DNA of 64,000 bases from Candidatus Azambacteria bacterium (GTDB taxonomy: Bacteria > Patescibacteriota > Minisyncoccia > GWC2-36-17 > WO2-46-25). The stretch is taken from NCBI GenBank assembly GCA_016200965.1, contig JACQDT010000001.1, forward strand, positions 3,544 to 67,543, in the 5' to 3' direction. The notes under the pieces are model-generated. The model saw nothing but the letters and a program-made list of their open reading frames with translations, searched no databases and had not been told where the DNA came from. The position numbers and the translations under genes are program-made. Every line of letters begins with the position of its first letter. Position 1 is the stretch's first letter. This document shows, in pieces, positions 19,027 through 63,422 of the stretch.

Positions 19027-20171
19027 GAAGAAAGGTATTCCAATATGCAATCGTCAAAAACCGTTTCGCGGCGTTCTCTTTTATCATCTGCTACAATGCG
19101 TACGCGTACATTGCCGTCATACGACGACTGCTCCGCTCTCTGCGTTCGCGGGTTGCGTTCAAGGGGCAGTCCGGCAAGCCATGTTTCGTCGCGAAGCGCG
19201 TCGTATGCCTCCGGAGCATATTCCGACGCCACTACCCACACGTTGCCCGGCAATAAATTCGTTTTGTCTATCTGTGAAATCGCCGTAACCACTCCTTGCG
19301 CTATGTTGCGCGCCGCCGCAACGATCGTTTCTTTTATTTTTTCCGCTATCCAGGCATTAAGCGCGCCGCCTCGAAACGCATCAAGCATGCTCCGCGCTTC
19401 TTCTTTACCCACTGCGTGCGCCCGTGCCAGTTCTTCAATAAGTATACCATAACCGGCGCGAACAACGCCAATCCCCGCAATTTTTTTTGCGCGCACAACA
19501 ATAATATCGGTTTCATTTTCAAAAATTGCGGCCAATATCGCGCTGTCATTTCCCGTGAAAACCGTTTTCCATTCCGCTAAAGCACAGCGCACGTCCGTCA
19601 TTCCCGCGCATCGCATGCCTAAAGCGGAAGCGAATTCATCAAAAGCGCGTACCAGCGACTTTCCACACGCGATGCTCACTATATCCGCGGTTACTTCTTT
19701 TCCATTTAAACCAACCGCGTCGGGAACCGCAAAACCGTCTACCCAAAAACGCTGGGGGATATTGCGGAATTCGGACGCGGACGCTTCGTTTTCCTTTCCG
19801 TACCATTTTGAAGTGACCGCCTCCACTTCTTCTTTGGTTATTTTCTTTTCCTTATCCTGGCGTATTCCCTTCGCCTGCGCGAATGAAAACATCCCCGTGC
19901 CCCCCGAAAGCGCGACGATAAAATCTTTCGCCCCACTTTTTGATTCCTTGGAAAGCGCCTGCAGGGCCTTTTCGCAATTGAGTATTATTTTTTCTGCGGC
20001 AAAATCCCCTTCGGACACCTCGCTCTCCTGTTTTTCGCTCCCGCGCTCCACTACCACCACCCGGTCGCCTTCCTTTTTCACCACCATGGCGACAATGTTG
20101 TCCGTATACACGACAAACACCACCGCCCGTGAGTAGTCCTTAAAAAAATCTCCTTTCACAAGAAATGACAT
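19023..20171 (-). CDS. hypothetical protein, possibly actin-like ATPase fold (FtsA/PilM-like); carries one 42-bp repeat insertion
   Basis: N-terminal VVFVVYTDNIVAMVV and IVALSGGTG segments resemble ASKHA-fold proteins. A 14-aa NPRTQRAEQSSYDG insert sits near the C-terminus. Confidence 0.35.
   Translation of the reverse strand: MSFLVKGDFFKDYSRAVVFVVYTDNIVAMVVKKEGDRVVVVERGSEKQESEVSEGDFAAEKIILNCEKALQALSKESKSGAKDFIVALSGGTGMFSFAQAKGIRQDKEKKITKEEVEAVTSKWYGKENEASASEFRNIPQRFWVDGFAVPDAVGLNGKEVTADIVSIACGKSLVRAFDEFASALGMRCAGMTDVRCALAEWKTVFTGNDSAILAAIFENETDIIVVRAKKIAGIGVVRAGYGILIEELARAHAVGKEEARSMLDAFRGGALNAWIAEKIKETIVAAARNIAQGVVTAISQIDKTNLLPGNVWVVASEYAPEAYDALRDETWLAGLPLERNPRTQRAEQSSYDGNVRVRIVADDKRERRETVFDDCILEYLSS
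19116..19157 (+). repeat. 42-bp intragenic repeat unit, copy 1
   Basis: gtcatacgacgactgctccgctctctgcgttcgcgggttgc, in frame within the 19023..20171 ORF. Confidence 0.9.
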
Positions 20172-20239
20172 GATATCAGTATATCACGAGGAATAAAAAA
20201 GACGCCATAGAAAACCATAATGGTGCATAAAAACAATAA

Positions 20240-20275
20240 TTTGTCATTTTACCCCGATCGGGGTAAAATGACAAA
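20240..20275. repeat. 36-bp perfect palindrome tttgtcattttaccccgatcggggtaaaatgacaaa
   Basis: Exact self-complementary sequence in an intergenic region. Could be a terminator or an operator. Confidence 0.6.
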
Positions 20276-20332
20276 ATTGTAATACACGAAAAAAAACGAA
20301 AAATAACCAAAAAGAAATAACCGGAAAAATGA

Positions 20333-20363
20333 AAAGCCGGTTACTCGTTCGAGCAACCGGCTT
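20333..20363 (-). terminator. rho-independent terminator downstream of the 20396..21793 gene
   Basis: On the minus strand, the stem aagccggttgctcgaacgagtaaccggctt is followed by a T-rich run. Confidence 0.5.
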
Positions 20364-20395
20364 TCACCATTCAATTCAGCGGTTTGACCGCCACA

Positions 20396-21793
20396 TCACT
20401 TTTTAGGAGGAGCGGGAACCGCCTCCGGCGGTTTGTTGATGTGCAACGTAAAGTGCGGAAAAACAGAACGCGCTTCGGCGTCAAGAAAAAAACGGAGAGC
20501 GTCTTCAAGCGCAACGCGCTGTTTTGCCACCAGATCCGCATCAAAAAGCAGATCGGCGGTGCTGTGCTTGACGTTCAGCTTGCCGTTAAGCTGGCCAAAA
20601 CGCTCGTTCAGCTTCGGGCCCAGCGCGGCATCAAGGGCTTTATCAATCCCCCGATCAAGCTGTTCTTTATCTTTCCACGCCTGCCACACGGAGATGAAAT
20701 CCTCCTTTTTTTTCATCATCCGATAATCCACCGTGACGGGCAGTGCAATTCTCCGCGCTCCGTCAATGAACGTGAACGTTTTTGGAAAAGAACCGTCAAC
20801 AGGCACGCCCGGCACGACCCGATACCGGAAGTGATTGATAGTGTTTTTCTCCCAGGTGAGAAAGTGGTCGCCTATTTTAAGCGGCAAGCGGGCCACAAAC
20901 TCCCCCGACTTCCGGTCAACAAGCACCGCATGGTCTTCTACGGGATTCTTTTCGTAGACACTTAAAGGAATCCAGAACGAAAGCGAAGCATACAGCACCA
21001 TCACTGCAATCACGCAAGCGCTTGTCCGCCAATAAAGGTTCCTCCTGCTATTTGCCCGCAAGCCAAACATGAGGAAGCACGCGACCACCACAGAAGCAAG
21101 AGTGGAAAGAAACAAACCGATCGCGCCCGAGATTCGCCAGTTGAAAATCCAATACCAGACGATCTCGGCAAGGCATCCGATGAGCAGAGTGAAATCGCGC
21201 GCCGTTTCAATCCTGTTTTGGTTTCTTTGTATCCACGGAGCAAGAAACCGAAGCATCCTTGATCCTTGACGCCAGAACGCGCCGACTGCCCGGCCTATTG
21301 CTCCCCCTATCTGGCTCACCGCTCTCCGCATTGATTTTTGCGCTTCCTTTGCCCAGCTTGTCGCTTCGTTGAACTCTCGTTCAACCTGCACAATACTGCA
21401 TGCGTTTCCCGAAAGCAGAAGCGACATCACCGGCCACAGCTTTGTTTGAAGCGGTTTCTGGGCATAGCCGTCAATGCGAAAGCTCTCTTTACAATACTCG
21501 GACTCGCCGGAAGCCAAATGATAGAGCGTCACGCCGAGCCGCCGGAACGATTCCCGCAAATCGGGGACCCCGTTTTTTGCCTCAAAGCGGATCTTCCTTC
21601 CGCGATGAATCTCAATGCGGTTCGGCGGAAACGATACGTATTCCCCCTTCTGGGCACCTTTGGCGCATTCATTCAGAAGAACCTTTGCTACGGCAATCAG
21701 CTCTTTCTCGTCCATCACGAGTTGTTTCCTCTGTTCGGCCATTGTGTAACCCCCTTTCCTTTGAGTGTAGTGCATGAAATTCTCAACGTGCAT
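20396..21793 (-). CDS. membrane protein with C-terminal SPFH/band-7-like region (hypothetical)
   Basis: Central TM segments. C-terminal VTVDYRMMKKKEDFISVW region with a charged coiled-coil tail, reminiscent of SPFH proteins. Confidence 0.35.
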   Translation of the reverse strand: MHVENFMHYTQRKGGYTMAEQRKQLVMDEKELIAVAKVLLNECAKGAQKGEYVSFPPNRIEIHRGRKIRFEAKNGVPDLRESFRRLGVTLYHLASGESEYCKESFRIDGYAQKPLQTKLWPVMSLLLSGNACSIVQVEREFNEATSWAKEAQKSMRRAVSQIGGAIGRAVGAFWRQGSRMLRFLAPWIQRNQNRIETARDFTLLIGCLAEIVWYWIFNWRISGAIGLFLSTLASVVVACFLMFGLRANSRRNLYWRTSACVIAVMVLYASLSFWIPLSVYEKNPVEDHAVLVDRKSGEFVARLPLKIGDHFLTWEKNTINHFRYRVVPGVPVDGSFPKTFTFIDGARRIALPVTVDYRMMKKKEDFISVWQAWKDKEQLDRGIDKALDAALGPKLNERFGQLNGKLNVKHSTADLLFDADLVAKQRVALEDALRFFLDAEARSVFPHFTLHINKPPEAVPAPPKK

Positions 21794-21805
21794 TCCTTCT
21801 CGCTC

Positions 21806-21915
21806 CGTCTGTCCCTTCCGAGATCGGATCTCGGAAAACGACAGGCGGACTGAAAAGGAGACAGCGGAGCGAGGGGCGTTTAGCCGGACGCTCCGCTGTC
21901 CCAGATGTTAGGCGT
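21806..21915 (-). terminator. nested hairpins downstream of the AAA+ operon (probable terminator)
   Basis: Inverted repeats ctcgctccgtctgtc / gacagcggagcgag and the palindrome ccgagatcggatctcgg, followed on the minus strand by a T-rich tract. Confidence 0.4.
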
Positions 21916-21922
21916 GTGTTAC

Positions 21923-24346
21923 TTACGCCTCGTGCTTTGGTGTTTTATGCGCAAACTGCAAGTCGGGAAAGACCGCCGGCTGATTGGGAACGCTCCCCCT
22001 CAACCGCGTCTCTGCGGCAGAAAGAATATCCCGCCAGTGCGGGGGCCGCAATCGCTTTGAGCTCCCCTTGATGGCAAGAATGATCTGCCGGTCAATCTCC
22101 GCATGGCTGTTTCCTTCCCAATCGTCAAGCGCCTGCAAAAGGTGGGCTTTTTTGACTTGTTCGGCGCCTTCCCGGCCGGCGTATTTATCGGCCTCAAGCA
22201 CCATCCACTCAATGTCCGCGCCCGTACAGTATACTTTCTCCGCCGCACTTTTGGCATACGGCGAGAAGTCGGCAATGTCGGTCGGTATCTCGTACCGCTT
22301 AAACATCACCTCAAAGATGCTCCGCAACTCTTCTTCCGAAGGGAGCACGAACGGAATGTTGTCGTCCGTACGGCCTTTGCGTTTGTAGGCGGCGTCAATG
22401 AGGTCGTCGCGGTTTGATATCCGCACCCAGACGACTTTCCCTCTGCGCTTGGGGTCCGAGCAGAATTGAAATTTCATCTGCCGCAGACGGTTGGAAACCC
22501 CGGAATCGCCGTTGGGTACGTCGCGCGGACTTTCGGACTGATCCGCTTCATCCTCCACGACAATCACCGGCGCAAGATCGTCCAGCGCGGCAAGCATTGC
22601 CGCCATGGTCCGTTCCGACTCCCCCACCCACATGGTGCGCGGGTTTGCAATCTCCACGAAATTGAACCCGCACTCATAGGCCCAACACTCAAAGAGAAAG
22701 GTCTTGCCTGTCCCCGGAGGCCCCGCGGCAAGCATTCCCATCGGCACGCGGCGCGTCATTCCTTTGAGCAGGTAATCGCGTACTTCGTGTAAATACGCTT
22801 TCACATTCTCTTTGCCGCCGAAATACCGAAAGCCGAACTGGGGCGTCTTTACCTTGATCCGCTCGCCGAATTCCGCTTCAAGCGCTTCCTGTTTGCGTCT
22901 TTTGACAAGCGAGAGGTCAAGCGTGGTGTTGCGCGCTTTTGCAAGCGCGTACACCCCGTCAATCTGGCGCAACGATAAGCCGCCGGTGATTCTCCCAAGC
23001 GACTCTGCGTCAAGCCCCTGATCAAGCGATACCCCGTTGCCCTCAATCAGCGTGTGCCAGCGCAGGGTGCGCTCCGTATCTTTTGGTTTGGAAATCCGAA
23101 TGGCAACGGCGCCCGACTGTGCCGAGCGTATGCTTTCGGCCACATCGGCAAGGTGAGGAGTCACTAAGATCACAGTGTTCCCGGCCTCCTTGATTCTCTT
23201 ATCCCGCGCCCATCGCTCAAGCGTTTCAATCTGCGCGCGCTCTCCCGCGGCAAGTCCGCTTGAGAACGCAGGCGCGATGTTGTGCGCAAAATCAATCACC
23301 AGCGCTTTTTTCAAACTGCCGTCCTTTCCGGTATCATCGGTCAATACCTGTTCCAGTAAAGGGAGCATCTTGTCCGGCGTTTTGCCGCCGGTAAGCTGGT
23401 CAAGCGGCGCAGTCATCATTGACTGTTGAAATCCTTGCGCCGCCTTCTGGACCGCGCTTGTTTGTGCTGTTTGAGAAGCGGCGGCAGGAACTCCGGCGCC
23501 GCAATACTGTTGGCGGAACTGTTTTTCCTTTTCCGCGTCGGCAAACTGCACGCCCGCGGAGATGGAATAAAACAACACCATTCTCTGCTCAAACACCTCG
23601 GCGAGGTATTGATACAAAGAAAGATGCGTTCCTTTCTGGCTCCTCTGGAGGTCGTACACGTTCCCCCACAGAATGAACAGATGGGCAACGCCTGCCTGAT
23701 ATCGCAGGACAAGCTCTTTGAGCCACTCCGGCATCTCGTCGTTCACGGCTATCACCTCCTCCTTTGTTGAAGCGATTGGTTTTTCCGGCTCTTGCGAGAT
23801 CGCGGACGCCTCTGGGTTAACCCCTGCGGTCTGAACCCCTCCTATGAGCTCAAGATCATCCATAGCGCACCACCATCGGGCATTGGACTCGGTCTTACAG
23901 CTTTGCGGATACCATGGTTTTGCCCACGTATTTGCACCACTGGTACCGTCACCGTCGTGACCATCTCTGAAATCCTCAAACTCCGCAAGAAAAATCTGCG
24001 AAGTTAGAGTGTCTGATGGATTTAACACCACAACCGTTCCTGTCTTGCCTTTTGGTTCGCTCGCGACAGCTCTCACTCGGTCGCCCACTTTGAACTTCAA
24101 GCCGGGCCGCTCAAGAAGAATGAGGTTGTCGGAGTTGGTAGCGTGCAGAGAATTTGATTTTCCAATCACCGTTCCCCACAGTTTGTTGTTTTCAAACCCC
24201 TCCACGCGCACCCGTTCTGCATGCCATCGACTAGAAGAGGGATTCTGTTGATCATCAGTAATCACATCACCCGATCTGAACCCCCACAGCTCGCCTTCTG
24301 TTTCAACTACATATTCACCGTCAGTGGCAACAATTTTTTTCTTCAT
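21923..24346 (-). CDS. large AAA+ ATPase: unknown N-terminal domains plus a classic-clade AAA module
   Basis: Walker A GPPGTGKT, Walker B IVVEDEAD, and sensor SNRDDLIDAAYKRKGRTD. A degenerate AAA-like segment lies upstream. AGGAGG SD; start overlaps the preceding ORF (ATGA). Confidence 0.7.
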   Translation of the reverse strand: MKKKIVATDGEYVVETEGELWGFRSGDVITDDQQNPSSSRWHAERVRVEGFENNKLWGTVIGKSNSLHATNSDNLILLERPGLKFKVGDRVRAVASEPKGKTGTVVVLNPSDTLTSQIFLAEFEDFRDGHDGDGTSGANTWAKPWYPQSCKTESNARWWCAMDDLELIGGVQTAGVNPEASAISQEPEKPIASTKEEVIAVNDEMPEWLKELVLRYQAGVAHLFILWGNVYDLQRSQKGTHLSLYQYLAEVFEQRMVLFYSISAGVQFADAEKEKQFRQQYCGAGVPAAASQTAQTSAVQKAAQGFQQSMMTAPLDQLTGGKTPDKMLPLLEQVLTDDTGKDGSLKKALVIDFAHNIAPAFSSGLAAGERAQIETLERWARDKRIKEAGNTVILVTPHLADVAESIRSAQSGAVAIRISKPKDTERTLRWHTLIEGNGVSLDQGLDAESLGRITGGLSLRQIDGVYALAKARNTTLDLSLVKRRKQEALEAEFGERIKVKTPQFGFRYFGGKENVKAYLHEVRDYLLKGMTRRVPMGMLAAGPPGTGKTFLFECWAYECGFNFVEIANPRTMWVGESERTMAAMLAALDDLAPVIVVEDEADQSESPRDVPNGDSGVSNRLRQMKFQFCSDPKRRGKVVWVRISNRDDLIDAAYKRKGRTDDNIPFVLPSEEELRSIFEVMFKRYEIPTDIADFSPYAKSAAEKVYCTGADIEWMVLEADKYAGREGAEQVKKAHLLQALDDWEGNSHAEIDRQIILAIKGSSKRLRPPHWRDILSAAETRLRGSVPNQPAVFPDLQFAHKTPKHEA

Positions 24347-27814: not shown

Positions 27815-28969
27815 TCAATGGCTTTCATCATGAACGATTACGCCTCCGCCAAGCACTGCATCGTCGTCATACGACGACTGCTCCGCTCTCTGCGTTCGCG
27901 GGTTGCCGTCATACGACGACTGCTCCGCTCTCTGCGTTCGCGGGTTGCCGTCATAAAACACAATGGACTGGCCGGGGGTCACCGCGCGCTGGGGTTCGTC
28001 AAATATCACGTGAAGCGCGGCGTCAACGAAGCATTTCTGCAACGGCTGGCGATATCGGATGCGCGCTTCACAACGTAATGGAAACTGCGGCGCGGTTCCC
28101 GATATCCAACTTACACCCCGCGCAATCAATTCGGTCTTATACAAATCGCCTTCTTTTATGTTTTCCGCAACATACAGCGTGTTATGCGCGAGATCTTTTT
28201 GGGCGACGTAATACGCCGTGCCTCCGCCGGGAGAGCCGATGCCATGACGCTGGCCAATGGTGTAAAACACCGCTCCCTGATGCTTGCCCACCTGCTTTCC
28301 CGCCGCAGTCAGCACCGGCCCCGGCTGGGCGGCGATTTGGCTTTTTAGAAAATCAAACACCTCCAGTTCACCCACGAAGCATACCCCCTGGCTTTCCTTT
28401 CTGTTGGCGTTTGACAAGCCGAATTCCCGCGCGAGCTCGCGCACATGCGACTTAATAAAACCGCCTATGGGAAAAAGCACATGCGCTAATTTTTTTTGTG
28501 TCAGTGTCCACAAAAAATATGACTGGTCTTTGTTCTTGTCCATGCCGGCAAATAACGAGTAGCCGCCAGCAAGTAGTTGAGTGCGCGCATAGTGCCCCGT
28601 TGCAATAAAATCCGCTCCCATTGAAAGCGCGCGGTCAAGAAAAATACCGAACTTGATTTCTTTATTGCACATCACATCGGGATTGGGCGTGATTCCTTCA
28701 CGGTACGAAGAGACCATGTAGTCCACGACTTTCTTTTTGTATTCCTCCTGGACATCCCATGTATAAAAAGGAATGCCAAGCACGGCGGCCGCCTTGCGCG
28801 CCTCTTCCTGGTCCGCGACCCACGGGCACATCGTCTTGTCCTTGAAGAACCGGCTGTCAGACCAGCCCTTCATGAATACGCCCGTAACGTCATATCCTTC
28901 TTTTTTCAGCAATGCCGCCGCGACGGAACTGTCCACGCCGCCGGACATCGCAACGAATATTTTTTGCAT
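27815..28969 (-). CDS. mnmA: tRNA-specific 2-thiouridylase MnmA, carrying two tandem 14-aa repeat insertions near the C-terminus
   Basis: PP-loop AMSGGVDSSVAA, plus the MnmA core and C-terminal beta-barrel. The sequence IVFYDG-[NPRTQRAEQSSYDG x2]-D-AVLGGGVI shows the insert. Confidence 0.85.
   Translation of the reverse strand: MQKIFVAMSGGVDSSVAAALLKKEGYDVTGVFMKGWSDSRFFKDKTMCPWVADQEEARKAAAVLGIPFYTWDVQEEYKKKVVDYMVSSYREGITPNPDVMCNKEIKFGIFLDRALSMGADFIATGHYARTQLLAGGYSLFAGMDKNKDQSYFLWTLTQKKLAHVLFPIGGFIKSHVRELAREFGLSNANRKESQGVCFVGELEVFDFLKSQIAAQPGPVLTAAGKQVGKHQGAVFYTIGQRHGIGSPGGGTAYYVAQKDLAHNTLYVAENIKEGDLYKTELIARGVSWISGTAPQFPLRCEARIRYRQPLQKCFVDAALHVIFDEPQRAVTPGQSIVFYDGNPRTQRAEQSSYDGNPRTQRAEQSSYDDDAVLGGGVIVHDESH
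27866..27949 (+). repeat. two tandem 42-bp intragenic repeat units, copies 2 and 3
   Basis: Two exact consecutive units, followed by a partial gtcata. In frame in mnmA. Confidence 0.9.
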
Positions 28970-33271: not shown

Positions 33272-33280
33272 GGGCTTGGT

Positions 33281-41652: not shown

Positions 41653-43227
41653 TTAAACTGTTCTTTTGATGTAACGCAACCCCACGAAAAAAATACCGAT
41701 GATTCCTAAAATAAAAAGGTACGTGTTCCACGGAAACGCGTGTGCCGCAAGCGCCACGGGCGCCTGTTTTTCGTCTCGCGCTTCTTTGGCGGTGGATGCG
41801 ACCGTTGTCTCGCTTCCTTCGCTTTTTGCCTCCGCCGGCGCCACAACATCTTGAAACTGCGGCGCGGGCGCCACGGTCGGTTTTTTGATTTCTATCGCGG
41901 AAACCGGAGAAGAAGAAATTCCGCCGGCTGGCTCTTGCGCGGAAAGAAACATATTTGTTCCGCCCGGCGTGGGGCTTTGTGTCCATACGAATCGTTCGTC
42001 ATACGACGACTGCTCCGCTCTCTGCGTTCGCGGGTTGCCGTCATCGGCGCGCGCGACCGACCAGCACATCTTTGCATTTTCATATGTAACCTCATGCGCC
42101 GTCTGGCCTGTCGGATATGATAATACAACATGCCCCGACAAAGGAAATGTTATCTTGAGCGTGTCTCCGGAAAACACGAGAAATCCGCCGCCCGCGATGA
42201 ATGTATGTTCCGGAACACGAAACATCGCGGCGGACCCGCCTATTCCTATGCTCCATCCGGATAAATCCGCAAACGAATCGCTTGTATTATACAATTCAAG
42301 CCACTGCCCGCCGCTTTCAGATGAAGGAAGAAATTCGGAAATAACGACGCTCTGCGCGTATATGGTCGCCTCTATTTGATCCTGACTTGAGTGCGAGCCG
42401 TCCGATACCGTCAGCACCGCGACATACTTCCCCGGAAACTGATACCGATGCATGGTCGTTTTTCCTTCGGCAACATTCCCGTCGCCGAAATTCCATGAAA
42501 ACGCGAGTAAACCGGCGCCCGTTGATCGTGAGGCGTCAAATGAAACCGCATCTCCCGCAACAGCGACGATATTGGCGCCCGCATCAGCAACAATGGTATT
42601 TTGGGAAGCGGCGGAAGCACCCGACGGTTGCGCCGTCGTCTGGGACGAAGAAGACGGAGAAACACCTGCCCCGCTGTTTGGCGCGCGAGGCGTGCCATGT
42701 ATCGGATTGCCTTTCACATCCATCCCGTTTTGTGCCGTTCCGTCATTCGTATGCCATCCTTGCGCGTCTTTTTCCATTGACGCGTAATCGGGCGAAGCGG
42801 ACCCCGCGGGCCAACCGGAGGAAAAATCTATATTGTCCACAACGTTTCCCGCGTTATCTTTCAGCACTACATGCTCTCCGGAATTATTCAATCCGCTCCC
42901 CCCAAATGAGCCCGTCTCATCGGCGGGAACATCTGCGATGACGGTGTCATCGGTCCGTTCAATAAGATAATATCCGTTCGCGGATATTTTTTTCGTCAAC
43001 GCAATGACAAGCGTGCTCCCGCCCGCCTCGTACAGTCCCCAACCCGCAAGATCAATTTCGGCGTTCGTCGCATTTTTCAGTTCCACCCATTCATCGGCGC
43101 TGTTGGCTTTTGTCCCCATCCACCCAACTTCGTTTATCACCACATCGCCCGCGCCCGCGGCAAACACATATAAAGGGATGCTCCACACAACAAGCAACGC
43201 CTGAAAAAGAATTCTTGCGATTCGCAT
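41653..43227 (-). CDS. secreted protein with two lamin-tail domains and a PKD domain; carries one 42-bp repeat insertion
   Basis: Lamin-tail-domain signatures VVINEVGWMG ... DEWVELKN ... DLAGWGL and VVISEFLPS ... QWLELYN ... DLSGWSI. PKD-like FSWNFGDGNVAEG. DDG-NPRTQRAEQSSYD-ERF insert. Confidence 0.6.
   Translation of the reverse strand: MRIARILFQALLVVWSIPLYVFAAGAGDVVINEVGWMGTKANSADEWVELKNATNAEIDLAGWGLYEAGGSTLVIALTKKISANGYYLIERTDDTVIADVPADETGSFGGSGLNNSGEHVVLKDNAGNVVDNIDFSSGWPAGSASPDYASMEKDAQGWHTNDGTAQNGMDVKGNPIHGTPRAPNSGAGVSPSSSSQTTAQPSGASAASQNTIVADAGANIVAVAGDAVSFDASRSTGAGLLAFSWNFGDGNVAEGKTTMHRYQFPGKYVAVLTVSDGSHSSQDQIEATIYAQSVVISEFLPSSESGGQWLELYNTSDSFADLSGWSIGIGGSAAMFRVPEHTFIAGGGFLVFSGDTLKITFPLSGHVVLSYPTGQTAHEVTYENAKMCWSVARADDGNPRTQRAEQSSYDERFVWTQSPTPGGTNMFLSAQEPAGGISSSPVSAIEIKKPTVAPAPQFQDVVAPAEAKSEGSETTVASTAKEARDEKQAPVALAAHAFPWNTYLFILGIIGIFFVGLRYIKRTV
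41998..42039 (+). repeat. 42-bp intragenic repeat unit, copy 4
   Basis: Exact unit followed by a partial gtcatc. In frame in the lamin-tail-domain gene. Confidence 0.9.
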
Positions 43228-48387: not shown

Positions 48388-50517
48388 TTATTTGCTTAAT
48401 AATGGCTCAACGCGCTTCAACAGCGTCGCGTTCGTTGCCACAATAATAGAAGAAGCCGACATAAGGAGCGCGGAGATCTCCGGCCGAAGCGACCAGCCCA
48501 GCGAGGTGTAAAATACGCCCGCCGCGACGGGGATCGCGAGCACGTTGTAGATCGTCGCCCAAAAGAGGTTCTGTTTCATTTTGGCGACCGTGGCTTTGCT
48601 TAGGCGGATTGCCGCCACGATGTCGTACGGGTCCGACTTCATCAGCACGATATTTGCCGTTTCTATGGCGACGTCGGTGCCCGCGCCGATGGCGATGCCG
48701 ATGTCGGCCTGGGCAAGCGCGGGCGCGTCATTAATGCCGTCGCCCACCATCGCGGTGAATTTTCCTTCTTGCTGCAATTTCTTCACGTAATCCGCCTTGT
48801 CGTGCGGAAGCACCTGCGCGAAAAATCTAGTGATACCCAGCTCGTCGGCGACCGCGCGCGCCACCTGTTCGTGGTCGCCGGTGATCATCGCGACTTCAGG
48901 TCCAAGCGCTTGTAACGCCGCAATGGTCTTTTTCGCGCTTGGACGCAAGGCATCGCGTATCGCGATTACTCCCACCGCTTTTCCGTCAATCGCGACGATG
49001 CTGAGCGGGTTGCCGTCATACGACGACTGCTCCGCTCTCTGGGTTCGCGGGTTGCCGTCATACGACGACTGCTCCGCTCTCTGGGTTCGCGGGTTGCCCT
49101 CAAGAAGCGCACGATCAATCTCCGCCTGGACGGGCGCGGTGTCAATCCTGTTTTGCGCCATCAGCTTTGTTGTGCCGACGATCACCGTCCTGCCGTCAAC
49201 TTTGGCGCGGATGCCGAGCCCGCCGAGCGCCTCAAATTTTTCCACGCGCCCGAGGGTCTTTATGTTTCTTTTTTTGGCTTCCTTTAAAATCGCGGCGCTG
49301 ACGGGATGATTCGAGCCCAGCGAAGCGGAGGCGGCGTGCGCGAGCACGGCCTCGTCCGAAAACCTTCGCGTGCCGCTCACCCGAGTAATCGCCGGCTTTC
49401 CCTCGGTAAGCGTGCCGGTTTTATCCAGCACGATCGCGGTAAGCCGCGACGTATTTTCAAGCGTTGCGGCATCTTTAATGAGAATATTATGCCTCGCGCC
49501 GATGCCGGTCCCGACCGCGACGGCGGTGGGAGTAGCAAGCCCCAGCGCGTCGGGACACGCGATGACAACGGTAGAAATGGCAAGGGTGAGCGACGCGATC
49601 AGCGTTGCGCCGGCAATGACATACCAGCCCAAAAAGGTCGCGATGCCGGCGCCCACGGCAAGCACGACAAGCCATGCCGCCGCCCGATCGGCGATGCGCT
49701 GGCCGGGCGCTTTTGAGTTCTGCGCCGTTTCCACGAGCTTAATGATCTGCGCGAGCACCGTTTCCGAGCCGACAGCCATCGCCCGGAATTTCACCATACC
49801 TGTCAGATTAACCGACCCGCCGACGACTTTCGCGGCTATGGTTTTCACAACCGGCATGGACTCTCCCGTCACGAGGGATTCATCGATTGAAGATTCTCCT
49901 TCAGTAATCTCGCCGTCCACCGGTACTTTATCGCCCGGTCGGAGCACCACAATATCACCGCGGATGATTTCCGCGCTTGCGATGCCCGTCTCTTTCCCGC
50001 CGCGGATAACATTGGCCTTCGATGGCACGAGGTCAAAAAGCGCGCGCAGGGCGTCGGACGTACCGCGCCGCGACTTCATCTCCATCCAGTGGCCGAATAG
50101 CACGAATGTCACCAGCATCGCCGCCGCTTCATAAAATGCTTCCCCGTTGCCTTTAAAAGCAAGCGCGATACTGCCCGCATATGCGGCCAAAACGCCGGTG
50201 GCGATAAGCACCGCCATATTGAGCGTGCGCGCCTTGAGCGAATAATATGTCCCCGTGATGAAAATGGAACCGGTCCAGAACACGATCGGCGTCGTCAAAA
50301 GAAAAAGAAGCCAGTTTTTCGGAATCGGCGATGGGAGCGAAACGCCAAAAAGCATTTCCCCCATCTGCGAATACAACACGATGGGAACGGTGAGCGCGAA
50401 CGAAATGAAAAATCGCCGGCGCATATCCGTTTCCATTTCCTTTGCCATCTGCGGGTTCGTCATCGCCGCTTCATGATCGCGATGGCTCACTGTATGCATA
50501 TGATGCTCGTGTTCCAT
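48388..50517 (-). CDS. heavy-metal-translocating P1B-type ATPase with His-rich N-terminus; carries two tandem 14-aa repeat insertions
   Basis: DKTGTLT, TGDHE and GDGINDAP motifs. TM metal site reads IACPDALGLATP (CPD rather than CPC). N-terminus MEHEHHMHTVSHRDHE. ALLEG-[NPRTQRAEQSSYDG x2]-NPLSIVAIDG shows the insert. Confidence 0.85.
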   Translation of the reverse strand: MEHEHHMHTVSHRDHEAAMTNPQMAKEMETDMRRRFFISFALTVPIVLYSQMGEMLFGVSLPSPIPKNWLLFLLTTPIVFWTGSIFITGTYYSLKARTLNMAVLIATGVLAAYAGSIALAFKGNGEAFYEAAAMLVTFVLFGHWMEMKSRRGTSDALRALFDLVPSKANVIRGGKETGIASAEIIRGDIVVLRPGDKVPVDGEITEGESSIDESLVTGESMPVVKTIAAKVVGGSVNLTGMVKFRAMAVGSETVLAQIIKLVETAQNSKAPGQRIADRAAAWLVVLAVGAGIATFLGWYVIAGATLIASLTLAISTVVIACPDALGLATPTAVAVGTGIGARHNILIKDAATLENTSRLTAIVLDKTGTLTEGKPAITRVSGTRRFSDEAVLAHAASASLGSNHPVSAAILKEAKKRNIKTLGRVEKFEALGGLGIRAKVDGRTVIVGTTKLMAQNRIDTAPVQAEIDRALLEGNPRTQRAEQSSYDGNPRTQRAEQSSYDGNPLSIVAIDGKAVGVIAIRDALRPSAKKTIAALQALGPEVAMITGDHEQVARAVADELGITRFFAQVLPHDKADYVKKLQQEGKFTAMVGDGINDAPALAQADIGIAIGAGTDVAIETANIVLMKSDPYDIVAAIRLSKATVAKMKQNLFWATIYNVLAIPVAAGVFYTSLGWSLRPEISALLMSASSIIVATNATLLKRVEPLLSK
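49015..49098 (+). repeat. two tandem 42-bp intragenic repeat units, copies 5 and 6 (ctctgGgttcgc variant)
   Basis: Two consecutive units in frame in the P-type ATPase gene. Preceded by gagcgggttgcc, which resembles a partial unit end. Confidence 0.9.
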
Positions 50518-50595: not shown

Positions 50596-53500
50596 ATGCC
50601 CACCTTTGAAGAACGGTTCAATAAACTGAATGAGGGGCAACGAAAGGCCGTCCAAGCCATCGAGGGGCCTGTCCTTGTCATCGCCGGCCCGGGAAGCGGC
50701 AAGACGGAAATACTCGGCCTTCGCGTGGCCAATATCCTGAAAAAAACGGACACCCATCCGGGCAGCATCTTGTGCCTCACCTTCACGGATTCCGCCGCGG
50801 CAAACATGCGCGAGCGGCTTTCCGGCCTCATCGGGAGCGACGCCTACCGCGTCGTCATTGCCACGTTCCACAGTTTCAGTACCGACATCATCAACCGCTT
50901 CCCTGAATATTTTTACAACGGCGCGGCGTTCTCTCCCGCCGACGAGCTTACGCAAATGGAAATCCTTGAAGGCATATTCAAGGAATTGCCGTACGACAAT
51001 CCCTTGCGCACACAACACCCCGTGCAAGGATTCACCTATCTGGGAAGCGCGCGCAAATCGATCAGCCAGCTTAAAAAAGCCGGCATCGGCCTGGATGCGT
51101 TCGCGCGCGTTTTGAAATCAAACGCGCACGCCATCGGCGGAATAAACAAAAAGATGGAAATATTTGACGCGCGCATGAGCATGAAACAGATTGCCGCCAT
51201 CCGCGAATGCGCGGCGCAGCTTGACGTGTCTGCGCAAGAATCCGCGCTGAAAGAATACGCGCCGCTTGCGCACGCGGTCGCGCGCTCTCTTGAAGAAGCC
51301 GTTTCTTTAGCAGGAGAACAAGATACAATCGCGCCGCTATCCAGGTGGAAATCCGACTGGGTAAAAAAGAATGATGATATGCGTGTCTTTAAAGATACGA
51401 TGTACATGGAGAAGCTTTCCGCGCTTGCTGACGTTTATAACACATACCTGACCCGTATGCATGAGCGCGGGTATTACGATTTCGACGACATGCTTTTGAA
51501 CGTCCTTGAAGCGCTTGAACGCAACAGCGCGCTTCGCTATGAACTGCAGGAGCGGTATCAATACATTCTTGTGGATGAATTTCAGGACACCAACGATGCC
51601 CAGATGAAGCTGATCTCTTTTTTGACCGACGCCCGGGTGCACGAAGGGCGGCCCAACATCATGGTGGTGGGAGACGACGACCAGGCGGTGTATAAATTCC
51701 AGGGGGCTGAAATTTCAAACATCCTTGAGTTTCAAAGGCGATATCGCGACCCCGAGATCATCACGCTCACGCATAATTACCGCTCGCGCCAGGATATTTT
51801 AGACCTTGCCCGCCATATCATCCTGAAAGGAACGGAGCGGCTTGAACGGCGCATCGCCGGCCTTCGCAAAGATCTCGTCGCGGCGGGAAACAATATAAAA
51901 GAGGGTGCGATTGCAAGCCGCGTGTTCCCCTCAAGCGCGCACGAACGCCACTTTATAGGAAAAGAAATAAAAAAACTCATTGAAGGCGGCGCCAAGCCCG
52001 ACCACATAGTCGTTATCGCGCGACACCACCGCGACCTTGAAGCGCTTCTGCCGTACTTCGCCGCATCGGGCATTCCCGTCGCCTATGAACGCCAGCGCAA
52101 CGTGCTTCACGAGCCGCATGTGTACCAGATAATCCAAATCGCCAGATTCATATCTTCGCTCGCGCGGAAAAATCGCGCCGAAGCGGACGAATATCTTCCC
52201 GAAATTTTGAGCTTTCCTTTCTGGGGACTTGAGCGCAACACCATATGGGAGCTTTCCGCTTCGGCGGGGGCGCGAGGGGCGTTGTGGCTTGAAACGATGA
52301 TGCATCACACGGACGCGCGTTTGCGAAGCATAGCCGATCTTTTCCTTAACCTTGCTTTGCGCGCACAACACGAACCGGCCGAATACGTGCTTGACGCGAT
52401 CATCGGCTCGCCGTCATACGACGACCGCTCCGCTCTCTGGGTTCGCGGGTCGCATGAGAACGCCATGGAGGGCGGGGCCGTAAGCCCGTTTCGCGAATAT
52501 TACTTCGGCAAAGAGAAATTCGCGCGCGACAAAGCGACGTATCTTTCGTTCCTTTCCGGCCTGCACGCGTTCGTGCGGGCGCTTCGCGAATACAAGCAGG
52601 GACGATTTTTGAAGATAGACGATCTCGTTGCGTTCGTGGATATGCACGAAAAAAATAACATGCCCATCACCGACCAGAGCCCGTTCGTCGCCGCCGACAA
52701 GGCAGTGCATCTGCTTTCCGCCCATAAGGCAAAGGGGCTTGAATTTGAAACGGTGTTTGTCCTTTCCTGCCAAGACAACATATGGGCGGGGTCGCCGCGT
52801 GGATCCATGCTTCCCTTCCCCATGAACCTGCCCATCGCCCCCGCCGGCGACACCATGGACGACCAGCTCCGGCTTTTTTACGTCGCGCTCACGCGGGCGA
52901 AACACAACCTATACCTCACTTCATTTGAAAAAATGGAAAACGGAAAAAGCTCGGCGCGACTGCGCTTCCTTATAGAGGAGGAAGGCGGCCACATGAAAAC
53001 AAACGTCAAAGCGGCATTGGCGCCTGCGCCCGAAGAAAAAGAAGATACGCCCGAGCCGACCGACATCTTTTCGGCAGGGTGGGAACAGTACAACCGCGGC
53101 CCTCGTATCGCCGACGAAGAAGCGCTTTTGCGCGCGCTCGTGAAGGACTATCAAATGAGCGTGACACATCTGAATAATTTCCTGAACGTGAAAAAAGGCG
53201 GTCCGCAGGCATTTTTGGAACAAAATCTTCTGCGGTTCCCTCAGGCAAAAACGCCGTCTTTATCCTACGGCTCGGCGATGCACAAAGCGATCGAGCTTTT
53301 GTATCTCCGCTTCAAAAAAGAAGGAGTGCTTCCACCGCCGGAGCATCTGACGCAAGCATTTGAACGCGCGCTTGAAATGCAGCGCCTCGCCAAAGATGAC
53401 TTTATGAAATATCTCGCTCAGGGAAAAAACGCTCTTACGAAATTTTACGAAATGAAAAAAGAACGATTTTCCCAAAGCGACCTGGTGGAAGTCAATTTCA

Positions 53501-53940
53501 AAAATCAGGGCGTGCTGGTGGGCGAGGCGCACTTGACGGGCAAACTTGATAAGATGGTATTTAAAAGCGCGAATGAAATAGTGGTACACGATTTCAAAAC
53601 AGGAAACCCCGCCGACGAATGGGAGGGCGAGGGCGTGTACGAAAAAATAAAACTGCACAATTACAAGCGGCAGCTGGTATTTTACAAACTGCTTGTGGAA
53701 TACTCGCGCGATTTTTCGGAGAGATACGCCGTCCATAGAGGCGTGCTGGAATTTTTGGAACCCTATCATGGGAAAATCATCGACCTGCCGCTTGAGATAA
53801 GCGGCGAGGACGTGAAACGAACGACCGCGCTTATCGGGGTCGTCTACAAAAAGATCCTGTCGCTTGATTTCCACGATATCTCAAAATACTCCAAGGACCT
53901 CGCCGGCACGCTTGAGTTCGAAGAAGATTTGTTGAAATAA
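50596..53940 (+). CDS. UvrD/PcrA-family ATP-dependent DNA helicase fused to C-terminal PD-(D/E)xK RecB-like nuclease domain; carries one repeat insertion
   Basis: Helicase motif I VIAGPGSGKTE and UvrD motifs through VDEFQDTN. C-terminal GKLDKM ... VVHDFKTG nuclease motif. SPSYDDRSALWVRGS insert, which is the repeat unit read in the opposite orientation. Confidence 0.8.
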   Translation: MPTFEERFNKLNEGQRKAVQAIEGPVLVIAGPGSGKTEILGLRVANILKKTDTHPGSILCLTFTDSAAANMRERLSGLIGSDAYRVVIATFHSFSTDIINRFPEYFYNGAAFSPADELTQMEILEGIFKELPYDNPLRTQHPVQGFTYLGSARKSISQLKKAGIGLDAFARVLKSNAHAIGGINKKMEIFDARMSMKQIAAIRECAAQLDVSAQESALKEYAPLAHAVARSLEEAVSLAGEQDTIAPLSRWKSDWVKKNDDMRVFKDTMYMEKLSALADVYNTYLTRMHERGYYDFDDMLLNVLEALERNSALRYELQERYQYILVDEFQDTNDAQMKLISFLTDARVHEGRPNIMVVGDDDQAVYKFQGAEISNILEFQRRYRDPEIITLTHNYRSRQDILDLARHIILKGTERLERRIAGLRKDLVAAGNNIKEGAIASRVFPSSAHERHFIGKEIKKLIEGGAKPDHIVVIARHHRDLEALLPYFAASGIPVAYERQRNVLHEPHVYQIIQIARFISSLARKNRAEADEYLPEILSFPFWGLERNTIWELSASAGARGALWLETMMHHTDARLRSIADLFLNLALRAQHEPAEYVLDAIIGSPSYDDRSALWVRGSHENAMEGGAVSPFREYYFGKEKFARDKATYLSFLSGLHAFVRALREYKQGRFLKIDDLVAFVDMHEKNNMPITDQSPFVAADKAVHLLSAHKAKGLEFETVFVLSCQDNIWAGSPRGSMLPFPMNLPIAPAGDTMDDQLRLFYVALTRAKHNLYLTSFEKMENGKSSARLRFLIEEEGGHMKTNVKAALAPAPEEKEDTPEPTDIFSAGWEQYNRGPRIADEEALLRALVKDYQMSVTHLNNFLNVKKGGPQAFLEQNLLRFPQAKTPSLSYGSAMHKAIELLYLRFKKEGVLPPPEHLTQAFERALEMQRLAKDDFMKYLAQGKNALTKFYEMKKERFSQSDLVEVNFKNQGVLVGEAHLTGKLDKMVFKSANEIVVHDFKTGNPADEWEGEGVYEKIKLHNYKRQLVFYKLLVEYSRDFSERYAVHRGVLEFLEPYHGKIIDLPLEISGEDVKRTTALIGVVYKKILSLDFHDISKYSKDLAGTLEFEEDLLK
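52413..52453 (+). repeat. 42-bp intragenic repeat unit, copy 7 (diverged: gaccgctcc, gggtcgc)
   Basis: In frame in the UvrD-like gene. This is the only copy whose unit orientation matches the host gene strand. Confidence 0.85.
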
Positions 53941-53969: not shown

Positions 53970-53973
53970 TTAT

Positions 53974-55295: not shown

Positions 55296-55389
55296 AGTTG
55301 TTGTTTAACGGCAGGCACATATGCACCAAATCGCTTGTATGGCGCGTAACATACAGTATAATGATATCGTCTACATAAGCAAGCAACCT

Positions 55390-58573: not shown

Positions 58574-58640
58574 ATGATTAAAGCGGATTTAATGATATTA
58601 TTTTTGTGGTCTTTCTTTTTGTTATATTAGCATTTATTGC

Positions 58641-59491
58641 ATGAAACAGGAAACTAAAAACACGCCTCCGCAGAACATATGGGACCTGGCGGTCATCGGC
58701 GGAGGGCCGGCTGGCATGATGGCGGCCTCGCGCGCGGCCGAGTGTGGCGCGAAAGTCGTTTTGCTCGAAAAAAACGATACGCTCGGCAAAAAGCTTCTCA
58801 TCACCGGCGGAGGCAGGTGCAACGTCACCAACGCGGAATTCGACACGCGAAAATTTCTCTCAAAATTCAAGGGAAACGATAAATTCCTCTTCTCGGCGTT
58901 TTCGCAACGGGGCGTCAAAGAAACGCTGGATTTTTTCCACGCGCACGATATGCCCACCAAAGTGGAAGCGGAAAACCGCGTATTCCCCAAAAGCAACAGC
59001 GCCAAATCGGTGTGGGACGTGCTCGCGCGCTCCATGAAAGACAACGGCGTAACACTCCTTTCGCGTTCCCCTGTCGCTGGATTTGTTAAAAAAGGAAACG
59101 AGATACTGGCCGTGCGTTGTGCGGATGGAAAAGAAATAAAAGCCAAAGCGTTCGTGCTGGCAACCGGCGGCATGTCGCGCCCCGAAACCGGCTCCACGGG
59201 CGACGGATTCGTGTGGCTGAAAAAATCGGGCATACCGTCATTGCGTCGGACCCGGCTTTGGTGCCTGTTGCGGTCAAAGACGCCTGGGTCAAAAAACTCC
59301 AGGGCGTCAGCGTGCCCCGCGTCAAAATAACCCTGTTTCAAAACGGTCAAAAGCAAGACGTAAGTGAAGGCAACCCGCGAGCCCGGAGAGCGGAGCAGTC
59401 GTCGTATGACGACAAAATATTGTCCTTGTCCCAATTTCCTGTCCCGATTTCCGCGCCAAACCTTGGCCGGGCGGACTCTCAATTCGTATGA
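58641..59491 (+). pseudogene. HI0933-like FAD-dependent oxidoreductase (aminoacetone oxidase family), frameshifted near 59230 and truncated after a degenerate repeat copy
   Basis: GGGPAGMMAA Rossmann fold, GGGRCNVTN, and GSTGDGF-VW-AEKIGHTVIASDPALVPV. The family consensus is recovered only by joining two frames (one G missing in gtgtggctg). Ends about 115 aa short of family length. Confidence 0.55.
59369..59410 (-). repeat. 42-bp repeat unit, copy 8, reverse orientation and degenerate (encodes GNPRARRAEQSSYD)
   Basis: ggcaacccgcgagcccggagagcggagcagtcgtcgtatgac. Lies just before the premature stop of the HI0933-like gene. Confidence 0.8.
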
Positions 59492-59595
59492 GCCGAAAGG
59501 GTCTTGAAAAGCCGTAGTCGTTCAATGCAACCGATCTGAAATCAGTATACCAAAACCTCCTTTATTAAAAAATGAATTTTTGCTAAAGTAAGGTC

Positions 59596-61524: not shown

Positions 61525-61701
61525 ATCTTTTGTCTCTTTATAATTATAGAGAATCGTTGTATCGATGGCTTTTCTATCTTTCGGAGAGAGAATAACGATA
61601 GGACACACTTCGATGACGTCGCCCTTTTTGAACGGTTGCGCCGCAAAAACTCCGCGCCCTTTTTGAGAAACTTTTTGAATGAGGAGCTTGGATTGCGGCA
61701 T
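61525..61701 (-). CDS. SET-domain-like N-terminal fragment (possible gene remnant)
   Basis: KVSQKGRGVFAAQPFKKGDVIEVCPIVIL matches the G-x-G-VFA ... KGD-I SET N-terminal signature. The rest of ORF 61345..61701 overlaps the plus-strand gene and lacks NHS/ELxFDY motifs. Confidence 0.25.
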
Positions 61702-61879
61702 TTGTATTTGAAGCTTTACTGTAAAGAATTTACTTGACTAGGACTCCTTGGTCTGGTAGTATGTCACTATCACCAACGGAAAAGATCACCCCTTAAGGTT
61801 TTGTCCTTACGGGGCCTTTTCTTTTTTATGAAAATCTTTTTGCATGGCTCTATCTTAACACTATTCACTTTTTTATACA

Positions 61880-63331
61880 TTATTTCTCCAGATCAAGCAC
61901 TTCGTCAATGCGGATTTTTTTCACAAATTCGGGAACGTGGCTGACCAGAATCATCGCGCCCTGATACGCGTTCAGCGCGTCGGCGATGAGCGGAATATGG
62001 CGAAAATTGATATGGTTGGTCGGCTCGTCCAAGATAAGAAGCCCCGGCTTTTGCAAAACGAGCCGCGTGAAGGCGACCAATCCCTTTTGCCCTTCCGAGA
62101 GCGCCCCGATTTTCGTGCCCATACTCTCCGCGCCGATAAGAAACCCCGCGGCCGTGGACCGCAGGTTGTGTTCATTTTGCTTATCCATCGCAGAAAAAAG
62201 AGAATCATACACCGTATCGTCAAAATTAAGCGTTGAGAAATCCTGGCGGTAATATCCAATGCGCACGCCTTCGGCTATCGTAGCCCCACTTGCGTGTCCC
62301 GAAGCCAGTGCTTCCAAAAGCGTGCTTTTGCCTATGCCGTTGGGACCGGAAAGCAGAAGATGCGTATTTTTCTTCAGCGAAATCTTCGCCGCGTGCGTTA
62401 CCGATTTATAGTTTTTCAGCGTGGTATAGGAAGTAATGCGCACGATTTCTCCCGTCAAATCCTCCTGAACGGGTATCGTGAAAGGGCGGATGGTTTTGTC
62501 TTCTTTTCGCACGTCGACTTTCGCCGCTTCAAGCTCCTCGGCTTTGTCGCGCATGCGCTTTGCCACCATCCGCATCTTTCCGCCTTTGTGCGCGAAAAAA
62601 TTCGCCTTGTCTTTGTTTTCCTGTATCTCTTTTGCGAGCTGTGCGTTCTTGCTGTTTTCTTTTTCTATGCGCAACGTTATGTCTTTCACCACATCAAAAT
62701 AATTCCCCGCGTATTGCTCTATCTTTTTAGTGAACACGTCAAGATACAGCACGCCGTCGGTGAATGCATTCAGAAAACCCGCGTCATGGGAAATGACAAT
62801 GACCGTCTTTTCGTATTTCTTGAGAAAATCAGTCAGATGCGCGATCCCCGCCTTGTCCAGATTATTCGTCGGCTCGTCAAGAAGTAAAATATCCGGATTT
62901 TGGATAAGCGCGGACGCGAGTAAAAGCCGCGCCTGCTGGCCGCCCGAAAACGACTTGATGACTTTATCGTACGGCGCCGAGAGATGCACCACTTCCAACA
63001 CCGCCTCTATCCTCGGGTCTATGTCATACACTTTCGCCGCAAAGCATTTCTCAAAAAATGCTCTCACTGTCAGATGCATTTGATCGCGCGGGATCGCCTG
63101 GCGCGCCGTCGCAACGGAAAAATCGTCATCAATACTCGCCTTGCCCGAGTCGGGATGAATCGCTTTCGTGATTAAGGAAAATAGCGTGCTTTTCCCAGCG
63201 CCGTTTTGCCCCATGAGCGCGATCTTCATCCCGCCGCGCACCGAAAAACTCACCTCATGCAAAATGGGCTTGGTGTGTCCGTATTCAAAAGACACTTCAT
63301 CAAATCGTATGACGATTTCGTCGCGCGACAT
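61880..63331 (-). CDS. ABC-F family ATPase (tandem ABC domains, no TM domain; EttA/Uup/YheS-like)
   Basis: Two Walker A motifs (GQNGAGKST, GPNGIGKST). Two signature motifs (LSGGQQARLLLA, LSEGQKGLVAF). Two Walker B motifs (ILLLDEPTN, LLILDEPTN). Start set at MSRDEIVIRFDEV. Confidence 0.8.
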   Translation of the reverse strand: MSRDEIVIRFDEVSFEYGHTKPILHEVSFSVRGGMKIALMGQNGAGKSTLFSLITKAIHPDSGKASIDDDFSVATARQAIPRDQMHLTVRAFFEKCFAAKVYDIDPRIEAVLEVVHLSAPYDKVIKSFSGGQQARLLLASALIQNPDILLLDEPTNNLDKAGIAHLTDFLKKYEKTVIVISHDAGFLNAFTDGVLYLDVFTKKIEQYAGNYFDVVKDITLRIEKENSKNAQLAKEIQENKDKANFFAHKGGKMRMVAKRMRDKAEELEAAKVDVRKEDKTIRPFTIPVQEDLTGEIVRITSYTTLKNYKSVTHAAKISLKKNTHLLLSGPNGIGKSTLLEALASGHASGATIAEGVRIGYYRQDFSTLNFDDTVYDSLFSAMDKQNEHNLRSTAAGFLIGAESMGTKIGALSEGQKGLVAFTRLVLQKPGLLILDEPTNHINFRHIPLIADALNAYQGAMILVSHVPEFVKKIRIDEVLDLEK

Positions 63332-63380
63332 CTCCACACAGTACCTTATCTCATCAAAAATGGGAAGTGGTCCGCTTGCC

Positions 63381-63422
63381 GTCATACGACGACTGCTCCG
63401 CTCTCTGCGTTCGCGGGTTGCG
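63381..63422 (+). repeat. 42-bp repeat unit, copy 9, in the 5' leader of the ABC-F gene and abutting the palindromic element
   Basis: An exact unit, preceded by tccgcttgcc. Confidence 0.9.

Follow-up and report, generated by a model that had tools for sequence, protein, structure and literature searches.

The DNA analysed here, a 64,000-nucleotide stretch of Candidatus Azambacteria genome that we call the window, carries nine copies of a short repeat in and between its genes. We describe the sequence, host genes, and target site of this repeat, its occurrence in other genomes, and the mechanisms by which it may have spread. The unit, GTCATACGACGACTGCTCCGCTCTCTGCGTTCGCGGGTTGCC, is 42 bp (14 codons) long and occupies 7 sites: 5 lie in frame in intact genes, 1 in a pseudogene of an HI0933-like flavoprotein, and 1 in a 5′ leader. 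A search that allows up to 3 mismatches recovers 8 copies, against none in 100 shuffles, and a Hamming scan of the window adds the ninth, which has 4 mismatches (52413). Tandem Repeats Finder reports 2 tandem pairs, at 27865-27955 (100%) and 49005-49102 (98%), and both are internally identical. On translation, 5 of the 6 reading frames of the unit are open, the sole stop being a TGA in reverse frame 3. In the number and places of the copies and in the open frames of the unit, the window agrees with a first-pass annotation in which the repeat was noticed. The window holds no further dispersed repeat family of comparable strength.

Copies of the 42-mer and their host genes

Pfam names 4 of the 5 intact hosts: MnmA, a lamin-tail (LTD)/PKD protein, a P1B-type ATPase, and a UvrD/PD-(D/E)XK helicase. 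No Pfam family was assigned to the fifth, a hypothetical protein encoded at 19023-20171 on the minus strand. The unit is read in antisense frame -1, as GNPRTQRAEQSSYD, in 4 of these hosts, and in sense frame +2 in the helicase. An exact tandem pair at 27866..27949 (plus strand, copies starting at 27866 and 27908), followed by GTCATA, gives MnmA (27815-28969, minus strand) an insert of 28 amino acids, that is, GNPRTQRAEQSSYD twice over. This insert had been placed between VFYDG and AVLGGG; its actual flanks are VFYD and DDAVLGGG. A single exact copy at 41998..42039 (plus strand), followed by GTCAT, adds 14 amino acids to the lamin-tail protein (41653-43227, minus strand). The second tandem pair, at 49015..49098 (plus strand, copies starting at 49015 and 49057), has the change C28G in both copies; it forms a 28-residue insert in the P1B ATPase (48388-50517, minus strand) between ...RALLE and GNPLSIVAIDG, and is preceded by GCGGGTTGCC, a 10-nt match to the end of the unit. 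In the hypothetical protein, a single copy at 19116..19157 (plus strand) with 1 mismatch ends in TTGCG, is preceded by TTGCC, and reads RNPRTQRAEQSSYD in frame -1 near the C-terminus. The degenerate copy at 52413..52454 (plus strand) is preceded by TCGCC and reads SYDDRSALWVRG in frame +2 of the helicase gene (50596-53940, plus strand).

The 2 remaining sites lie outside intact coding sequence. A degenerate reverse copy with 3 mismatches, at 59369..59410 on the minus strand, falls in the HI0933-like gene (58641-59491, plus strand). This gene is split over 2 open reading frames (ORFs), 58641-59330 and 59117-59491, which retain about 283 of about 400 residues. The Rossmann part ends at 59330; the unit copy sits in the second, overlapping ORF, whose residues 21-63 give a weak continuation of the fold (3v76 residues 188-230), and the gene stops about 130 residues early, with its C-terminus missing. 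Since the gene is a frameshifted, truncated pseudogene, being "in frame" means little for the copy there, and the earlier count of at least 6 genes with in-frame copies holds for the 5 intact ORFs and not for this one. The last copy, at 63381..63422 (plus strand), has 1 mismatch, is preceded by TTGCC, and overlaps the ORF of an ABC-F gene (61880-63427, minus strand). The protein likely starts with MSRDEIV at about 63330, so that the copy lies upstream of the start, in the 5′ leader, as had been proposed.

The first-pass annotation also recorded a palindromic element of about 300 bp beside this leader copy, and it is indeed present. It spans 63426-63726, with the ABC-F leader on one side and, on the other, a small ORF of GIY-YIG-like type (63731-63991, minus strand), and occurs once in the window. 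Its 26-nt inverted arms (63426-63451 and 63701-63726) are 96% complementary, and they enclose a perfect inverted pair of 21 nt (63486-63506 and 63621-63641). A comparison of the element with Rfam gave no match.

Host proteins with and without the insert

An NCBI protein from Candidatus Azambacteria matches the MnmA of the window at 100% identity. The 59 orthologues that rank next (52-73% identity) all lack the insert and read VFY-D(G/D)-D-xVLGGG at the corresponding place. In an AlphaFold2 model built from 52 sequences, the mean pLDDT is 89.4, but it falls to 51-60 over residues 341-370, against 96 in the flanks; this stretch is flanked by strands E335-339 and E371-379 of a beta-hairpin. The insert is thus modelled as a low-confidence loop excursion at a beta-hairpin in an otherwise confident structure. 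For the ATPase, alignment with Legionella pneumophila CopA (3rfu) is interrupted precisely at the insert and gives 2 blocks; this is where the nucleotide-binding domain joins the phosphorylation domain. The helicase copy occupies a linker, bounded by EPAEYVLDAIIGS and SPFR, that varies in length and in which the closest orthologues (66-72% identity) are about 14 amino acids shorter. The MnmA and helicase orthologues without the insert show that it is not an ancient conserved segment of these proteins.

A sister assembly, GCA_016178885.1, is 99.7% identical to the window and gapless over 7149 nt (window positions 16023-23171), and it holds the 19116 copy in the same place. The lamin-tail protein of the sister strain (MBI1754662.1) has the same insert as that of the window, and its MnmA (398 aa) has 3 tandem peptide units against the 2 in the window. 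Because the same inserts, at 3 sites, are found in this independent assembly, the insertions replicate between assemblies, and the possibility of an assembly chimera, raised in the first-pass annotation, is answered. The MnmA array differs in length between strains 0.3% apart; array collapse in one of the assemblies may account for this. For several window proteins, exact-protein look-ups gave no record.

Distribution and evolution

Sequence collections were searched with an exact 22-of-23-nt pattern over unit positions 3-25, and it was by this pattern that the loci with copies were selected; none of the matched stretches overlaps the window. Among bacterial and archaeal genomes, 1 per species, the pattern found 21 stretches, all in metagenome-assembled genomes (MAGs) of Patescibacteria save one. 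The exception is a 1550-bp contig with a tandem pair (CAYHPU010000168.1), binned as "uncultured Gammaproteobacteria", which is most likely a mis-binned Patescibacteria fragment. Metagenome contigs yielded 102 stretches, and viral contigs yielded 0 pattern matches. Some of the host proteins are 65-85% identical to proteins of the window; hence several of the contigs come from relatives of Azambacteria, whatever their database label.

Merging tandems and orthologous sites leaves about 96 independent sites of insertion, all of them on contigs of Patescibacteria from several groundwater projects; 80 (80/96) lie inside ORFs of at least 150 codons. The arrays comprise 14 of 2 copies and 1 of 4 copies. 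The same insertion is kept in orthologous genes whose flanks are 5-12% diverged, as 1 copy in 2 lineages and as 2 copies in a third: copies are passed on vertically, and array copy number shifts between close strains. Within the unit, variation clusters at positions 25-30 and shows no adenine specificity, and in the peptide residues 5-6 are free to vary. The idea that the unit evolves more slowly than its flanks was dropped once the 22 positions fixed by the search pattern were set aside, and we claim no sequence constraint. A census with the peptide, repeated 3 times, as query gave 2 scored matches among 170 candidates, which serves as a rough upper scale only.

A related subfamily is present at L097 (5799-5840 and 5914-5955) and L029 (2839-2880). 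Its members have the 3′ two-thirds of the unit, CTGCTCCGCTCTC...TTCGCGGGTTGCC, in common with the 42-mer and a different 5′ part, TTGCCCCATTGGGTGCGACGAC...; their sequences suggest several element families with a common right end.

Junctions and target site

Among the non-tandem copies, 94 in all, position -1 of the left flank is occupied by C without exception (94/94), position -2 by C (91%), -3 by G (87%), -4 by T (59%), and -5 by T (69%). The left junction of target and unit reads GCC|GTCATACGACGAC. To the right of the unit, GTC is mildly enriched (42-50% at +1 to +3). The boundaries are identical in every copy, and the unit ends in TTGCC irrespective of what flanks it. The comparison of a filled with an empty site, CCTTTCC[42]GAATTTT versus CCTTTCC|GAATTTT (loci L108 and L071), shows a gain of exactly 42 nt and zero duplication. 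These sites belong to a conserved non-coding block (see below), whose empty forms, retrieved by searching with the 2 halves of the block, read ...CCGCCGCCTTTCC|GAATTTTCGCGG....

The TTGCC in front of several window copies had been noted at first pass, as either a target-site duplication or an insertion-site preference. The observation extends well beyond the window, and the constant end of the unit, together with the empty site, decides in favour of a target preference. Since the unit ends in its own target, a resident copy recreates the target, which accounts for the exact head-to-tail tandems.

Reading frame and orientation

We compared the frames in which the unit is read at the 80 independent intragenic sites with the shares expected from the codon phase of TTGCC and GGCAA sites in the ORFs of the fetched loci. 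Frame -1, which encodes GNPRTQRAEQSSYD, is used at 56 sites, where 26.3 (33%) would be expected (p = 1e-11). Frame +1 is correspondingly rare, with 4 sites observed against 21.3 (27%) expected (p = 8e-7), and the stop-containing frame -3 is used once, against 7.2 (9%) expected (p = 0.01); the lone copy in that frame lacks the TGA (GACAT). The other frames stand at 10 observed and 10.5 (13%) expected for -2, 7 and 12.7 (16%) for +2, and 2 and 2.0 (2.5%) for +3. Part of the frame bias is explained by the phase of the target. For the remainder, the best explanation is that insertions in the stop frame, and those that yield the basic-hydrophobic peptide VIRRLLRSLRSRVA, were selected against. In the window, 8 of the 9 copies are on the plus strand, where GC skew is uniformly negative.

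A conserved non-coding block that carries the 42-mer

In 5 Parcubacteria MAGs and 9 metagenome variants (14 sequence variants), the 42-mer lies within a conserved non-coding block. The block is about 190-330 nt long, occurs with and without the 42-mer, and often adjoins tRNA genes. It is found at L108 (1480-1780 and 2660-2798, both minus strand) and L071 (4260-4480, minus strand; 5000-5225, plus strand), and also at L007, L009, L010, L014, L017, L045, L055, L081, L088, and L122. Its hairpins show variable expansions, with lengths that are often multiples of 3.

At 2 loci, the first 24-27 nt of the block are the same as the codons for AAKEKLEIV in a resolvase N-terminal fragment about 900 nt away (PF00239, 29.2 bits), and at 1 locus the body of the block is inverted inside the resolvase fragment. 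The block looks like the remnant of a recombinase-associated mobile region beside tRNA genes; as to its nature, it may be a mobile-element remnant or a novel RNA. Comparison with Rfam gave no match at the gathering score or at E-values up to 10, ARAGORN reported nothing, and covariation analysis returned 0 compensatory pairs, the block being too conserved for that analysis.

Three identities for the block were considered and set aside. Reverse frame 3 of the unit reads ANAESGAVVV*, which resembles a tmRNA tag; the empty ARAGORN and Rfam results, a variant without the stop, and the existence of the block without the 42-mer speak against a tmRNA. An RNase P RNA, suggested by a GAGGAAAGUCC-like motif in L055, found no Rfam match even on 471 nt at E-values up to 10. 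The third identity was a master copy from which the others derive: in genomes that contain the block the 42-mer was seen nowhere else, and in the copy-rich ones no block was seen. We therefore treat it as one more host and not as a donor, although it is possibly a vehicle for horizontal spread.

L055 also contains a 25-nt GC-rich module, AGCGGTGCGGCTCCGCCGCCTTTCC, in both orientations (2584-2608, plus strand; 1676-1700, minus strand). In one orientation the module is in frame in a resolvase-like fragment and carries a 14-nt palindromic insert, GTCCGCCAGCTGGC, at the site used elsewhere by the 42-mer.

Mechanism and alternative explanations

We conclude that the 42-mer is probably a mobile mini-element, non-autonomous and site-specific: a piece of selfish DNA that measures 14 codons. 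The first-pass annotation had proposed a small selfish element tolerated in coding DNA, akin to the Rickettsia palindromic elements (RPEs) yet non-palindromic and tandem-forming, and the orthologues without the insert, the roughly 96 sites, and the lack of a fold signal all sustain that proposal. Each insertion adds exactly 42 nt directly 3′ of (T)TGCC and duplicates no target bases, presumably through an enzyme that acts in trans and cleaves at set ends. Gene-dense genomes of Patescibacteria retain the element because 42 nt is a whole number of codons and 5 of its 6 frames are open. Selection would then purge most insertions outside antisense frame -1, in which the encoded peptide is hydrophilic. 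In that frame the preferred target TTGCC^GTC encodes Asp^Gly-Asn/Lys, a typical turn, and to judge from this sequence surviving insertions may be steered into surface loops.

By analogy, the insertion could be a "peel and paste" transposition of single strands by an HUH/Y1 enzyme, as in IS200/IS605 elements and their mini-derivatives, although we hold this mechanism to be rather less probable than the mobility itself and short of an even chance. To our knowledge, it is the only well-known mechanism with such anatomy. A top-strand hairpin across the left junction, GCC|GTC-ATAC-GACGAC, could serve as the recognition structure. Its pair 1-10 is G-C in 130 copies, A-T in 5, and G.T in 2, and its pair 2-9 is T-A in 122 copies and T.G in 11; these variants, mostly T.G/G.T wobbles and the A1-T10 double change, are valid on the top strand only. 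More tentative again, and on balance doubtful, is a comprehensive scheme in which the 42-mer would be the smallest known trans-mobilised single-strand transposon, at 42 nt, whether moved by an HUH-type or another enzyme: its left end would pair with the target GCC, its antisense target would be an Asp-Gly turn pair that steers it into protein loops, and it would be specialised for coding sequence and horizontal spread among Patescibacteria.

Several observations weigh against an enzymatically mobilised element, and against the HUH mechanism in particular. All copies with the "compensatory" A1-T10 pair come from a single genome and may represent 1 inherited lineage. As single-stranded DNA, the unit folds no better than shuffles (z = 0.0 and -0.4), and it has no right-end hairpin, while IS200/IS605 and REP elements depend on hairpins. 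No transposase was seen near the copies in the window ORFs scanned, and a tblastn search of 0.86 Mb of loci with an IS608 TnpA query found nothing, which is a weak negative. In multi-copy loci the orientation of the unit tracks the strand of the host gene and not that of the chromosome, whereas IS608-type elements have a lagging-strand bias. Outside the pattern-fixed positions (19 left), units diverge about as fast as their flanks. Lastly, targets weakly resemble the unit-unit junction out to -7/-8 (G about 42%) and at +1 to +3, which an annealing mechanism also predicts.

This last point belongs to the main rival, in which no dedicated enzyme is needed and copies come from microhomology-primed template switching or from slippage while DNA is replicated or repaired. 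A nascent strand with ...TTGCC at its end would mis-anneal to the TTGCC upstream of a donor unit or array, copy 1 unit, and return to its own template. Such a process fits targets that, to the left and right of the insertion point, resemble the unit-unit junction by degrees (GGnTTGCC^GTC), the 10 nt that the CopA site has in common with the unit end, the tandem copy number that varies among close strains as slippage predicts, and the failure to find a transposase. It fits less well with boundaries that are identical in all of about 130 arrays, among which other phases, partial units, and variable lengths were not seen. A homology of 3-5 nt is, moreover, very short for about 96 independent long-range events, and the invariant C at -1 resembles a rule of cleavage or recognition. 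We regard template switching as unlikely, though it is the strongest of the alternatives to a mobile mini-element.

Considerably less probable is that the insert is useful to its hosts, either because the 14-residue peptide is a functional motif or because the 42 nt act as an RNA or DNA signal, such as a pairing site for a transcript that bears the 42-mer. The strong bias to a single frame and peptide, the retention of orthologous inserts across populations 5-12% diverged, and the presence of the same 42-mer in 14 sequence variants of the non-coding block would all follow from a function. Yet the proteins that carry the insert serve unrelated functions, a pseudogene and a leader harbour copies as well, the peptide tolerates free variation at 2 residues, the unit is not clearly slower-evolving than its flanks, and in MnmA the insert is modelled as a low-confidence loop. 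The block, too, exists without the 42-mer, and block genomes lack dispersed copies just as many-copy genomes lack the block. The remaining explanation, that the inserts are artefacts of contamination or of misassembly at repeats, or that each is an old, conserved segment of its protein, we consider effectively refuted and its residual probability slight. Short-read MAG assemblies may mis-join at repeats, and searches of Logan assemblies from the population of the window did not recover the exact MnmA and CopA proteins; against this stand the sister assembly, the recurrence of the insert at the same sites in several metagenomes with diverged flanks, unit matches from at least 5 unrelated projects, and the orthologues that lack the segment.

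Comparison with known repeats

IS200/IS605 elements, which use HUH/Y1 transposases, and their mini-derivatives (PATEs and REP/RAYT systems) carry a subterminal hairpin at each end, lie mostly outside genes, and have a lagging-strand bias. The 42-mer resembles them in inserting 3′ of a tetra- or pentanucleotide without target duplication and without inverted ends; the likeness extends to defined ends, precisely emptied sites, and the existence of very small non-autonomous derivatives moved in trans. It departs from them in having a small putative hairpin at the left junction only and, in multi-copy loci, an orientation that follows the gene strand. No Y1 transposase (TnpA/RAYT) was seen in the 64 kb of genome and the scattered loci sampled.

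RPEs (reviewed in PMC10969869 after Ogata et al. 2000, 2002) are selfish repeats that are read through within the housekeeping genes of a reduced genome. Like them, the 42-mer is a short repeat that lies in frame in many unrelated genes, encodes a peptide tolerated by the fold, and has no coding capacity of its own. RPEs are palindromic and about 100-150 bp long, whereas the 42-mer has 42 bp and no fold beyond that of shuffles; it further differs in its strict pentamer target without duplication, its exact head-to-tail tandems, and its Patescibacteria hosts. This comparison is one of features and not of sequence. Intragenic miniature transposable elements with inverted repeats (MITEs) such as ERIC, Correia, and QMITE are likewise non-autonomous and able to form in-frame fusions, but they measure 100-400 bp and have terminal inverted repeats and target-site duplications (PMC10969869). 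The 42-mer has neither: its ends, GTCATACG and GGGTTGCC, are not complementary. It is therefore similar to RPEs in outcome while failing the defining features of RPEs and MITEs, namely palindrome, size, inverted ends, and duplication. PARCELs, the palindromic amphipathic repeat coding elements of Mollicutes (PMC2996958), are also repeat coding sequences that lie within genes of bacteria with minimal genomes and bear signs of a horizontal distribution; they are palindromic and build repeat proteins, in contrast to a single 14-codon unit in enzyme loops.

Two further classes were rejected. REP/REPIN sequences are extragenic imperfect palindromes of 20-40 nt, and the 42-mer is a non-palindromic unit found mainly inside ORFs. 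Repeats of diversity-generating retroelements do not fit a variation that lacks adenine specificity, and the window ORFs that were scanned include no reverse transcriptase. Full-text literature searches, whose coverage was incomplete, returned no report of such repeats in Patescibacteria or Parcubacteria.

These observations bear on several questions. They indicate that the ultra-small, gene-dense genomes of the Candidate Phyla Radiation are open to mobile DNA if the element is built for read-through. They provide a natural catalogue of sites in essential enzymes (MnmA, CopA, and helicases) that tolerate 14-42 extra residues, and they account for some lineage-specific "insertions" in Patescibacteria proteins and some contig breaks in short-read assemblies. 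If an insertion enzyme is found, the combination of a 42-nt cargo, a 5-nt target, and scarless insertion would be of interest for work on HUH transposases and for insertion tools.

Other repeats in the window

The window contains a few local repeats besides the 42-mer. A 21-nt (7-codon) tandem repeat of about 8-9 units, with 74-79% identity, lies at 34261-34451 in a thioredoxin-like paralogue (ORF 33870-34619, minus strand), and the neighbouring stretches 33280-33664 and 33869-34253 are gene duplicates about 75% identical to each other. Another 21-nt tandem repeat, exact and of 2.4 copies, is found at 46813-46862 inside ORF 46608-47024 (minus strand). A 40-nt perfect-type palindrome, TTTTTTCCnCCGnAGGCGGATCCGCCTnnGGCGGAGA, occurs in 2 copies 88% identical (36091-36134 and 38020-38063) that bracket an ArsR/MerC-like cluster; the pair probably represents bidirectional terminators.

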